A stretch of DNA of 3,569 nt, taken from Escherichia phage MS2. A program made the position numbers and the translations under genes. Within the stretch, counting starts at the first letter, position 1. Every line of letters begins with the position of its first letter. Location of the stretch: the sequence record NC_001417.2; one strand, 5' to 3'. Positions 1,728 through 3,569 of the stretch are shown here, one piece after another. The notes beneath the pieces are model-generated. The model ran no database searches and was not told the origin of the DNA. It saw nothing but the letters and a program-made list of their open reading frames with translations.

Positions 1728-1905
1728 TAGACGCCGGCCATTCAAACATGAGGATTACCCATGTCGAAGACAACAAAGAAGTTCAACTCTTTATGTATTG
1801 ATCTTCCTCGCGATCTTTCTCTCGAAATTTACCAATCAATTGCTTCTGTCGCTACTGGAAGCGGTGATCCGCACAGTGACGACTTTACAGCAATTGCTTA
1901 CTTAA
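1678..1905 (+). CDS. lys: Lysis protein L (single-gene lysis protein)
   Basis: 75-aa ORF in a different frame from both coat and replicase, overlapping the coat 3' end (1678-1727) and the replicase 5' end (1761-1905). Basic N-terminal half (RRRPFKHEDYPCRRQQR) followed by a hydrophobic segment (LYVLIFLAIFLSKF...LLLSLLEAVI) containing Leu-Ser dipeptides. Translation recognised as MS2 L. Confidence 0.93.
   Translation: METRFPQQSQQTPASTNRRRPFKHEDYPCRRQQRSSTLYVLIFLAIFLSKFTNQLLLSLLEAVIRTVTTLQQLLT
1738..1744 (+). promoter_or_regulatory. 3' arm of the 'Min Jou' long-range interaction
   Basis: CCAUUCA at 1738-1744, perfect complement of 1427-1433, immediately 5' of the operator hairpin. Confidence 0.85.
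1746..1764 (+). promoter_or_regulatory. Translational operator (TR) hairpin: coat-protein binding site, replicase RBS and packaging signal
   Basis: ACAUGAGGAUUACCCAUGU read directly. Lower stem 1746-1750 with 1760-1764, bulged A at 1751, upper stem GG 1752-1753 with CC 1758-1759, loop AUUA 1754-1757. Contains the replicase SD (GAGGA) and AUG (1761-1763). This is the textbook MS2 operator. Confidence 0.96.
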
Positions 1906-3398
1906 GGGACGAATTGCTCACAAAGCATCCGACCTTAGGTTCTGGTAATGACGAGGCGACCCGTCGTACCTTAGCTATCGCTAAGCTACGGGAGGCGAAT
2001 GGTGATCGCGGTCAGATAAATAGAGAAGGTTTCTTACATGACAAATCCTTGTCATGGGATCCGGATGTTTTACAAACCAGCATCCGTAGCCTTATTGGCA
2101 ACCTCCTCTCTGGCTACCGATCGTCGTTGTTTGGGCAATGCACGTTCTCCAACGGTGCTCCTATGGGGCACAAGTTGCAGGATGCAGCGCCTTACAAGAA
2201 GTTCGCTGAACAAGCAACCGTTACCCCCCGCGCTCTGAGAGCGGCTCTATTGGTCCGAGACCAATGTGCGCCGTGGATCAGACACGCGGTCCGCTATAAC
2301 GAGTCATATGAATTTAGGCTCGTTGTAGGGAACGGAGTGTTTACAGTTCCGAAGAATAATAAAATAGATCGGGCTGCCTGTAAGGAGCCTGATATGAATA
2401 TGTACCTCCAGAAAGGGGTCGGTGCTTTCATCAGACGCCGGCTCAAATCCGTTGGTATAGACCTGAATGATCAATCGATCAACCAGCGTCTGGCTCAGCA
2501 GGGCAGCGTAGATGGTTCGCTTGCGACGATAGACTTATCGTCTGCATCCGATTCCATCTCCGATCGCCTGGTGTGGAGTTTTCTCCCACCAGAGCTATAT
2601 TCATATCTCGATCGTATCCGCTCACACTACGGAATCGTAGATGGCGAGACGATACGATGGGAACTATTTTCCACAATGGGAAATGGGTTCACATTTGAGC
2701 TAGAGTCCATGATATTCTGGGCAATAGTCAAAGCGACCCAAATCCATTTTGGTAACGCCGGAACCATAGGCATCTACGGGGACGATATTATATGTCCCAG
2801 TGAGATTGCACCCCGTGTGCTAGAGGCACTTGCCTACTACGGTTTTAAACCGAATCTTCGTAAAACGTTCGTGTCCGGGCTCTTTCGCGAGAGCTGCGGC
2901 GCGCACTTTTACCGTGGTGTCGATGTCAAACCGTTTTACATCAAGAAACCTGTTGACAATCTCTTCGCCCTGATGCTGATATTAAATCGGCTACGGGGTT
3001 GGGGAGTTGTCGGAGGTATGTCAGATCCACGCCTCTATAAGGTGTGGGTACGGCTCTCCTCCCAGGTGCCTTCGATGTTCTTCGGTGGGACGGACCTCGC
3101 TGCCGACTACTACGTAGTCAGCCCGCCTACGGCAGTCTCGGTATACACCAAGACTCCGTACGGGCGGCTGCTCGCGGATACCCGTACCTCGGGTTTCCGT
3201 CTTGCTCGTATCGCTCGAGAACGCAAGTTCTTCAGCGAAAAGCACGACAGTGGTCGCTACATAGCGTGGTTCCATACTGGAGGTGAAATCACCGACAGCA
3301 TGAAGTCCGCCGGCGTGCGCGTTATACGCACTTCGGAGTGGCTAACGCCGGTTCCCACATTCCCTCAGGAGTGTGGGCCAGCGAGCTCTCCTCGGTAG
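1761..3398 (+). CDS. rep: RNA-dependent RNA polymerase (replicase beta subunit)
   Basis: 545-aa ORF MSKTTKKFNSLCIDLPRDLSLEIYQ... with the catalytic YGDD motif. AUG sits inside the operator hairpin. UAG stop at 3396-3398. Last gene in levivirus order. Confidence 0.98.
   Translation: MSKTTKKFNSLCIDLPRDLSLEIYQSIASVATGSGDPHSDDFTAIAYLRDELLTKHPTLGSGNDEATRRTLAIAKLREANGDRGQINREGFLHDKSLSWDPDVLQTSIRSLIGNLLSGYRSSLFGQCTFSNGAPMGHKLQDAAPYKKFAEQATVTPRALRAALLVRDQCAPWIRHAVRYNESYEFRLVVGNGVFTVPKNNKIDRAACKEPDMNMYLQKGVGAFIRRRLKSVGIDLNDQSINQRLAQQGSVDGSLATIDLSSASDSISDRLVWSFLPPELYSYLDRIRSHYGIVDGETIRWELFSTMGNGFTFELESMIFWAIVKATQIHFGNAGTIGIYGDDIICPSEIAPRVLEALAYYGFKPNLRKTFVSGLFRESCGAHFYRGVDVKPFYIKKPVDNLFALMLILNRLRGWGVVGGMSDPRLYKVWVRLSSQVPSMFFGGTDLAADYYVVSPPTAVSVYTKTPYGRLLADTRTSGFRLARIARERKFFSEKHDSGRYIAWFHTGGEITDSMKSAGVRVIRTSEWLTPVPTFPQECGPASSPR
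2775..2786 (+). other. Codons for the replicase catalytic YGDD motif (RdRp motif C)
   Basis: In-frame UAC GGG GAC GAU (Y-G-D-D) within ...TIGIYGDDIICPSE...; the GDD core is the hallmark of RNA-dependent RNA polymerases. Confidence 0.9.
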
Positions 3399-3430
3399 CT
3401 GACCGAGGGACCCCCGTAAACGGGGTGGGT

Positions 3431-3446
3431 GTGCTCGAAAGAGCAC
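3431..3446 (+). other. 3' UTR stem-loop with GAAA tetraloop
   Basis: GUGCUC (3431-3436), GAAA (3437-3440), GAGCAC (3441-3446): perfect 6-bp stem with a GNRA loop. Confidence 0.6.
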
Positions 3447-3467
3447 GGGTGCGAAAGCGGTCCGGCT

Positions 3468-3481
3468 CCACCGAAAGGTGG
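3468..3481 (+). other. 3' UTR stem-loop with GAAA tetraloop
   Basis: CCACC (3468-3472), GAAA (3473-3476), GGUGG (3477-3481): perfect 5-bp stem with a GNRA loop. Confidence 0.55.
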
Positions 3482-3483
3482 GC

Positions 3484-3495
3484 GGGCTTCGGCCC
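3484..3495 (+). other. 3' UTR stem-loop with UUCG tetraloop
   Basis: GGGC (3484-3487), UUCG (3488-3491), GCCC (3492-3495): 4-bp stem with a UNCG loop. Confidence 0.55.
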
Positions 3496-3538
3496 AGGGA
3501 CCTCCCCCTAAAGAGAGGACCCGGGATTCTCCCGATTT

Positions 3539-3564
3539 GGTAACTAGCTGCTTGGCTAGTTACC
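3539..3564 (+). other. 3'-terminal hairpin preceding the single-stranded ACCCA tail
   Basis: GGUAACUAGC (3539-3548) is the exact reverse complement of GCUAGUUACC (3555-3564), giving a perfect 10-bp stem with loop UGCUUG (3549-3554). Followed by ACCCA at 3565-3569. Confidence 0.8.
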
Positions 3565-3569
3565 ACCCA

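Follow-up and report, generated by a model that had tools for sequence, protein, structure and literature searches.

Positions 3399–3569 of the window analysed here (one strand of 3569 nt, read 5′ to 3′) make up the 171-nt 3′ untranslated region (UTR) of Escherichia phage MS2 (Emesvirus zinderi). We assigned this stretch, with a probability of about 90%, to the published 3′-terminal domain of the Leviviridae, which comprises the closing helix ld IX and seven hairpins, the terminal hairpin U1 among them. In this arrangement the 3′-terminal ACCCA of MS2 is predicted to be paired with UGGGU at 3426–3430 rather than free. No genome was sequenced before that of MS2; the 3′ domain of the phage, the rule for its genome ends (GG...CCA with an added A), and the link of the domain to the maturation protein (Mat) are textbook material, known in detail. 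The identity of the window was established by megablast against 50,697 phage records, 299 of which were matched; these included several full-length 3569-nt MS2 records at 98.9–99.5% identity, and by this sequence comparison the window is the complete MS2 genome.

In the published description of the family, the outermost 3′ nucleotides pair with a stretch further upstream to form ld IX, which closes a domain that typically has the hairpins U1, U2, and V; the same description gives "seven hairpins in phage MS2," a U1 loop UGCUU in MS2, SP, and AP205, and a hairpin V whose A-rich loop is a possible binder of the MS2 maturation protein (PMC3561173). The window agrees with the MS2 domain of the van Duin and Riga groups in genome, length, coordinates, closing helix, hairpin count, hairpin V, UGCUU loop, and CCCA end, and differs from it in a variant at 3451–3463 that removes one GAAA hairpin from the prediction. 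For the anatomy of the domain, folding was begun at 3385 to leave the last replicase hairpin intact. On the plus strand, to which all coordinates given here refer, UGGGU (3426–3430) formed the 5′ arm and ACCCA (3565–3569), containing the template C residues and the terminal A, the 3′ arm of a 5-bp helix around a multi-branch junction, a pairing also present in the RNAalifold consensus. U1 abutted this helix directly, without an intervening unpaired nucleotide. The junction of GQ153927, a resequenced MS2, carried exactly seven hairpins, at 3431–3446, 3451–3462, 3465–3483, 3484–3495, 3497–3522, 3523–3533, and 3539–3564. Many hairpins of the domain end in the extra-stable tetraloops GAAA or UUCG. 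The three G-C pairs of ld IX had probabilities of 0.84–0.96 when the isolated domain was folded, and the helix was found in five independent single-sequence minimum free energy (MFE) structures, namely those of MS2, fr, DL54, GA, and KU1. It was invariant in the 12 sequences compared, and its 5′ arm UGGGU was kept unchanged inside an otherwise variable non-coding stretch in both group I and group II; the support for ld IX is thermodynamic and comes from conservation.

The original prediction, made from the letters of the window, had described a highly structured 3′ UTR with a perfect 10-bp terminal hairpin at 3539–3564 and tetraloop hairpins at 3431–3446, 3468–3481, and 3484–3495, and had proposed RNA folding of 3399–3569 as a check. 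A mechanical check located the three tetraloop hairpins exactly there and counted 10 Watson-Crick pairs in the terminal one, and the fold recovered all four, the terminal hairpin included, with a stem probability of 1.00. The MFE of 3399–3569 was −85.8 kcal/mol vs. −68.7 ± 4.5 kcal/mol in 200 dinucleotide shuffles (z = −3.82; 0/200 as stable). The description as highly structured was therefore borne out, the region being more stable than its composition predicts and showing compensatory changes in relatives. A perfect 11-bp stem was attained in 1/2000 dinucleotide shuffles, and at least four tetraloop hairpins of at least 4 bp in 33/2000. The 3′ UTR ranked second in stability among 137 segments of 171 nt, with a G+C content of 63% against 52% for the genome. 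The last ~300 nt (3276–3569) supplied five of the six most stable 171-nt segments tested; these included the 3′ end of the replicase gene, so that strong structure is not limited to the UTR.

The terminal hairpin U1 (3539–3564) reads GGTAACTAGC/TGCTTG/GCTAGTTACC, with the loop UGCUUG at 3549–3554 containing the family-conserved UGCUU. Its stem reaches 11 pairs by way of U3538-A3565, or grows inward by a U3549-G3554 wobble, the loop then being GCUU, and no other close-range inverted repeat of at least 10 nt in the genome was 100% complementary. In the R17 record (EF108465), U3561 of MS2 is replaced by a G, so that the otherwise perfect U1 stem contains an A-G mismatch.

Four further hairpins were found beyond the four predicted originally. 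The last replicase hairpin, of the R1 type, spanned 3390–3408 in the MFE structure (7 bp, CCUCGGU/ACCGAGG), with the UAG stop codon (3396–3398) at the stem-loop junction. The hairpin CCCCG-UAAA-CGGGG (3412–3425) lay outside the closing helix, and its stem was kept in 12/12 sequences. Hairpin V (3497–3522) had an interrupted stem (GGG.CCUC/GAGG.CCC) and an A-rich loop (CCCCUAAAGA) in the MFE structure and overlapped a published Mat site at 3510–3527, and the short hairpin GGGA-UUC-UCCC (3523–3533), likewise an MFE element, was invariant in group I. As for the tetraloop hairpins, GUGCUC-GAAA-GAGCAC (3431–3446; 6 bp) carried a GNRA loop and showed compensatory changes at three stem positions in group II phages, and CCACC-GAAA-GGUGG (3468–3481; 5 bp), present in the MFE structure, had its pairs kept in fr by changes on both sides. 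The hairpin GGGC-UUCG-GCCC (3484–3495; 4 bp) carried a UNCG loop and occurred in the MFE structures of GQ153927 and fr, in the latter as GAGGG-UUCG-CCCUC; it was missing from the MFE structure of the window when the fold began at 3385. Between these hairpins, the stretch 3451–3463 allowed only GC-GAAA-GC in the window, compared to CCGC-GAAA-GCGG, a fourth GAAA hairpin, in other isolates. The window version of this stretch destabilised the fold, and the UUCG hairpin consequently dropped out of that one MFE structure.

Comparison with relatives supported the same layout. The 3′ ends of fr, R17, DL16, ST4, DL54, GA, KU1, and three BZ13 strains were aligned with MS2, giving 12 sequences in all, and the RNAalifold consensus yielded the same closing helix and terminal hairpin. 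Standard pairs occupied 96.7% of the cells vs. 33–48% when the partners were slid by 1–3 columns, and eight pairs changed on both sides vs. 0–2 in the slid controls. The U1 stem contained two compensatory positions, and the U1 loop was invariant in 12/12 sequences. Single-sequence folds of fr, DL54, GA, and KU1 reproduced the MS2 layout. Since the MAFFT alignment of fr with MS2 was not structure-aware in the fr-specific hairpins, the two independent folds were compared helix by helix instead. By this comparison fr kept each of the MS2 hairpins through double changes; for instance, CCACC/GGUGG became CAUCA/UGGUG, GGGC/GCCC became GAGGG/CCCUC, and CCUC/GAGG became CUGGCC/GGUCAG. The hairpin at 3390–3408 showed a compensatory change from G-C to A-U in fr, and a comparable stop-codon hairpin was present in GA and KU1. 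More distantly, in the MFE structures of a Qbeta-like record, SP, M, and C-1, the 3′ domain was likewise closed by the terminal nucleotides.

The two genome ends are related to each other by sequence. The 5′-terminal GGGTGG is the reverse complement of 3563–3568, so that the 3′ CCACCC complements the 5′ GGGUGG as had been claimed; the terminal A (A3569) was confirmed mechanically to lie beyond this complementarity, and the sequence also confirmed that a minus strand would start with GGGUGG. The 5′ GGGUGG (1–6), the complement of which is the minus-strand 3′ end before the added A, was the same in fr, R17, DL16, and ST4. It belongs to a 5′-terminal hairpin (1–28; core 5–12 with 17–24, loop UUUC) found both in the full-length MFE structure and in the fold of the minus-strand 3′ end, and a stable 5′ hairpin important for replication has been described in the family (PMC3561173). 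In the fold of the complement of 1–28, the minus-strand 3′ end consisted of a hairpin followed by CCCACCC-A. Both strands thus finish with a stable hairpin and then ACCC-A, the plus strand as ...GUUACC-ACCCA and the minus strand as ...GGGGUCCC-ACCC plus the added A. All records reaching the 3′ end (10 of the 11 distinct phage records, that of FrBlood being trimmed) finished in ...ACCACCCA, with some of these ends possibly derived from primers. The nanopore direct-RNA study poly(A)-tailed its RNA, so the terminal A is not resolvable there. Overall, the termini of the window look native and complete.

An exact 6-nt terminal match in a fixed register has a probability of ~2.4e-4 (4^-6). GGGTGG was not enriched in the genome (four sites, a number attained in 19/200 shuffles), and the non-random aspect is its location at both exact termini. 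The full 6-nt match was limited to the MS2/fr group, other genera having 2–4 terminal nucleotides in common, and on the sequences compared only GG(G)/(C)CCA is general to the family. GA starts with GGUGG and KU1 with GGUUGG, which breaks the terminal complementarity; BZ13-DL20 starts exactly as MS2. The group II 5′ ends, which may contain sequencing errors or be derived from primers, were for that reason not used for terminal complementarity. These oddities at the 5′ ends, together with the mismatch in the R17 record, look like matters of record quality (old errors, primer-derived ends) rather than biology.

The mechanism by which such ends are replicated is established for the sister phage Qbeta. 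Each Qbeta strand has GG at its 5′ end and CCA at its 3′ end; the replicase initiates de novo, placing GTP against the penultimate C, the terminal A does no more than stack on the first G-C pair, and an untemplated A is added by the enzyme at the end of each round (PMC4200798; PMC10610835). By extension, the MS2 replicase, composed of the phage beta subunit and the host proteins EF-Tu, EF-Ts, and S1, would initiate de novo by placing GTP against the penultimate C; the terminal A would stack on the first base pair without being copied, and the replicase would re-add an A each time it finishes a product strand. A start at the penultimate C together with an untemplated A would make both strands begin with GG and end with CCA. 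Because the 5′ end reads GGGUGG, the minus strand would end in ...CCACCC-A after a stable hairpin, and both strands would offer the same kind of 3′ end. The window sequence is compatible with a penultimate-C start and an untemplated A in MS2. The original prediction had called the match between the ends the expected arrangement for replicase initiation on both strands; this fits the Qbeta mechanism, but it is incomplete in that it misses the closing helix, the role of Mat, the insufficiency of the UTR, and the restriction of the 6-nt match to MS2 and fr. In an MS2 cell-free system, the complement of the 5′ UTR was sufficient for plus-strand synthesis, and plus strands with both UTRs yielded no minus strands, which implies that the 3′ end is buried or that internal elements are missing (PMC6847885). 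With the CCC hidden in ld IX, and with long-range contacts to the replicase gene in addition, initiation on the plus strand may depend on the global fold and on host factors, and dependence on the global fold would account for the insufficiency of the UTR by itself as a promoter.

The same end of the RNA is engaged by the maturation protein. The 3′ end of the MS2 genomic RNA is attached to Mat (PMC6635492); binding beside this end, Mat blocks the site of the replicase (bioRxiv 2021.08.10.455819). RNase protection placed Mat sites at 3510–3527 and 388–414 (PMC5007439). Structures with MS2 Mat have been solved (5TC1 and 6NM5). In virions of Qbeta, the six 3′-terminal nucleotides, CCA included, pair with 4124–4129, and U1 is bound to the maturation protein and U2 to a coat dimer (PMC8880383). 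According to published MS2 work, Mat in the virion holds the 3′ end, blocks access of the replicase, and carries the RNA into the next host, and the capture of the 3′ end by Mat may switch the RNA from template to packaged genome. An imperfect inverted repeat at 387–418 (CGAGGAGAAAGCCG / CGGCTTCTCCCTCG; 79% complementary) coincides with the second published Mat site.

Some points weigh against the assignment and the mechanism attached to it. Since ld IX never varies, covariation is silent on this helix. In the full-length MFE structures the ACCC tail paired with 832–834 (window) or with the 5′ GGGU (GQ153927), and forcing ld IX cost ~3 kcal/mol of ~1520, which is within model error either way. 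The start at the penultimate C and the addition of A were solved with the Qbeta replicase and not with that of MS2, and the exact contact between Mat and the hairpin is taken from secondary citations. The first of the alternatives follows from the pairing just mentioned: GGGU(GG) at the 5′ end and (CC)ACCC at the 3′ end could form a panhandle between the two terminal hairpins, which would circularise the genome and present a duplex for recognition by the replicase. The full-length MFE structure of GQ153927 indeed paired 1–4 with 3565–3568 (4 bp, GGGU/ACCC), a forced panhandle was 2.6–3.2 kcal/mol better than a forced ld IX in full-length energies, and work cited in PMC6847885 put forward a terminal helix and "functional circularity" for the templates of the Qbeta replicase. 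However, a difference of ~3 kcal/mol in ~1520 (~0.2%) is not meaningful, and the unconstrained partner of ACCC differed between two near-identical sequences; the full-length folds are therefore not decisive between ld IX and the panhandle. The local helix, on the other hand, reached a probability of 0.84–0.96 in the isolated domain, and UGGGU was invariant in its variable surroundings in groups I and II. The last six nucleotides in the Qbeta virion pair locally and not with the 5′ end (PMC8880383), the transcription of MS2 minus-strand templates was undiminished or improved when the other terminal domain was missing (PMC6847885), and other family members have just 2–4 terminal nucleotides in common. 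A panhandle is on these grounds quite improbable.

The domain could also serve mainly as a packaging and protection module, a nuclease-resistant knot of tetraloops for Mat and coat dimers, with the match between the ends a by-product of the copying of ends. Such a role would accommodate the binding of Mat to 3510–3527 and to the 3′ end, the contacts of U1 with Mat and of U2 with a coat dimer in Qbeta (PMC8880383), the location of the most stable 171-nt segments of the genome in its last 300 nt, the G+C content of 63% vs. 52%, and the failure of the 3′ UTR alone to drive minus-strand synthesis (PMC6847885). It nevertheless leaves room for a function in replication, and Qbeta replication needs both the CCA end and the U1 loop. 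The number of hairpins, moreover, varies across the family from two or three to seven, but the terminal helix, U1, and CCA persist (PMC3561173), which points to the end-proximal elements as the core. As an account of what the domain is mainly for, packaging seems to us somewhat unlikely. That the structure merely reflects a G+C-rich tail and that the 6-nt match is a coincidence or an assembly artefact has practically no probability left: the region does have 63% G+C and GGGTGG is not over-represented in the genome, but none of the 200 dinucleotide shuffles folded as well (z = −3.8), an 11-bp stem arose in 1/2000 of them, relatives show compensatory changes, and independent 3569-nt MS2-like records have identical termini, which at the 3′ end are also those of fr and group II. 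An artefact of composition is excluded.

Within the Leviviridae 3′-terminal domain as assigned here, the U1 loop is a candidate for a long-range contact. In Qbeta, a pseudoknot of the U1 loop with a site ~1200 nt upstream and an S1-bound M-site have been proven experimentally; for MS2 both are only predicted. The Qbeta pseudoknot is essential and was predicted in other phages, and it was stated in 2012 not to be verified outside Qbeta (PMC3561173). In keeping with this prediction, the putative partner of the MS2 loop UGCUUG is CAAGCA at 2211–2216 (context 2196–2221), located in the replicase gene ~1340 nt upstream. Of all AAGCA sites, only the one within this hexamer is found at the same replicase coordinate in 12/12 Emesvirus genomes; the hexamer lies inside an 11-nt invariant run, though the identity between MS2 and GA is just 57% over all nucleotides and 42% at third positions; as 2211–2216 is coding, constraint on the protein is a confounder for this conservation. 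In PP7, the loop is changed to GCUCAG, and CUGAGC, one of only two 6-nt complements in the PP7 genome, occurs 1249 nt upstream, at a distance of 3 nt from the homologous position in the replicase gene (rough chance estimate ~0.004). This apparent covariation of loop and site adds some support for the pseudoknot in MS2. Complements of 5–6 nt to the loop were found within ~20 nt in M, C-1, and AP205 and none was found in PRR1, and the Qbeta/SP site fell in a different alignment column. The predicted accessibility of 2211–2216 lay in the 68th–96th percentile, above the median and unremarkable. Taking these observations together, we regard it as evenly balanced whether the MS2 U1 loop (3549–3554) forms, as in Qbeta, a long-range pseudoknot with 2211–2216 that, instead of the 3′ UTR by itself, positions the sequestered CCCA end for minus-strand initiation. 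If it does, this would explain why plus strands with only the MS2 UTRs are not copied, and 2211–2216 would be the element to add in building self-replicating MS2 plus-strand templates.

Among known systems, Qbeta (Qubevirus durum) resembles MS2 in its CCA end, in the folding back of the terminal nucleotides to an upstream stretch, and in a U1 hairpin with a UGCUU-containing loop. It differs in having far fewer hairpins than the seven of MS2 (the closely similar SP has three; PMC3561173), and its plus and minus strands have only GGG in common at the 5′ end. The tRNA-like 3′ structures of plant viruses such as brome mosaic virus (BMV) and turnip yellow mosaic virus are alike in that a structured 3′ UTR with a CCA end is the site of minus-strand initiation, and the structure in BMV is also needed for assembly (PMC6466141). 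Unlike in these viruses, the A is added by the viral replicase and not by the host CCA-adding enzyme. A tRNA-like structure in the MS2 3′ UTR is excluded: ARAGORN returned 0 genes, and no tRNA-like family was matched at E up to 1 in an Rfam scan that covered the whole window with all 4227 families. The same scan, at that threshold, assigned no family to the 3′ UTR; the 3′TE-DR1 element of red clover necrotic mosaic virus, the only match there, scored 18.2 bits vs. a gathering score of 80 and was rejected as chance. Panhandle promoters of segmented negative-strand RNA viruses have inverted complementary termini, and both of their strands have similar ends. Compared to these, the complementarity in MS2 is just 6 nt long with a one-nucleotide offset, and local pairing is both predicted and reported for its 3′ end.

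Between the window and GQ153927 there were 24 differing positions, grouped in clusters of local transpositions at 2002–2007, 2159–2160, 2426/2429, and 3451–3463. In the 3′ UTR, it reads GGGTGCGAAAGCGGTCCGGCT vs. GGGTCCGCGAAAGCGGTGGCT in every resequenced isolate and in fr. Over 3300–3569 the best identity to the window in the phage collection was at most 98.5%, and no record shared the window version, whereas the alternative version of 3451–3463 forms a clean CCGC-GAAA-GCGG hairpin that is missing from the window prediction. Judged from these comparisons, the variant at 3451–3463 probably goes back to a historical error made in sequencing the original reference. Such an error alters the predicted structure and is relevant to the design of MS2-based replicons or structure probes.

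The remainder of the window has the levivirus gene order mat-cp-(lys)-rep, and the 3′ domain follows the replicase stop codon. The open reading frame (ORF) for the maturation protein (130–1311) has a GUG start; the ORF list further gave those for the coat protein (1335–1727), the overlapping lysis protein (1678–1905), and the replicase (1761–3398). The sole above-threshold Rfam match was RF02359, the MS2 coat-protein operator hairpin, at 1729–1764 (61.3 bits), around the replicase start codon. One of the relatives used above, DL54 (JQ966308), is filed as MS2, yet over 3260–3398 its C-terminal part of the replicase is just 59% identical. In its 3′ UTR of 125 nt, the closing helix and U1 are separated by three hairpins, and the stem of U1 is as in group II (GGUGACUA...). 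From these sequence features, DL54 looks like a mosaic of, or an intermediate between, groups I and II.

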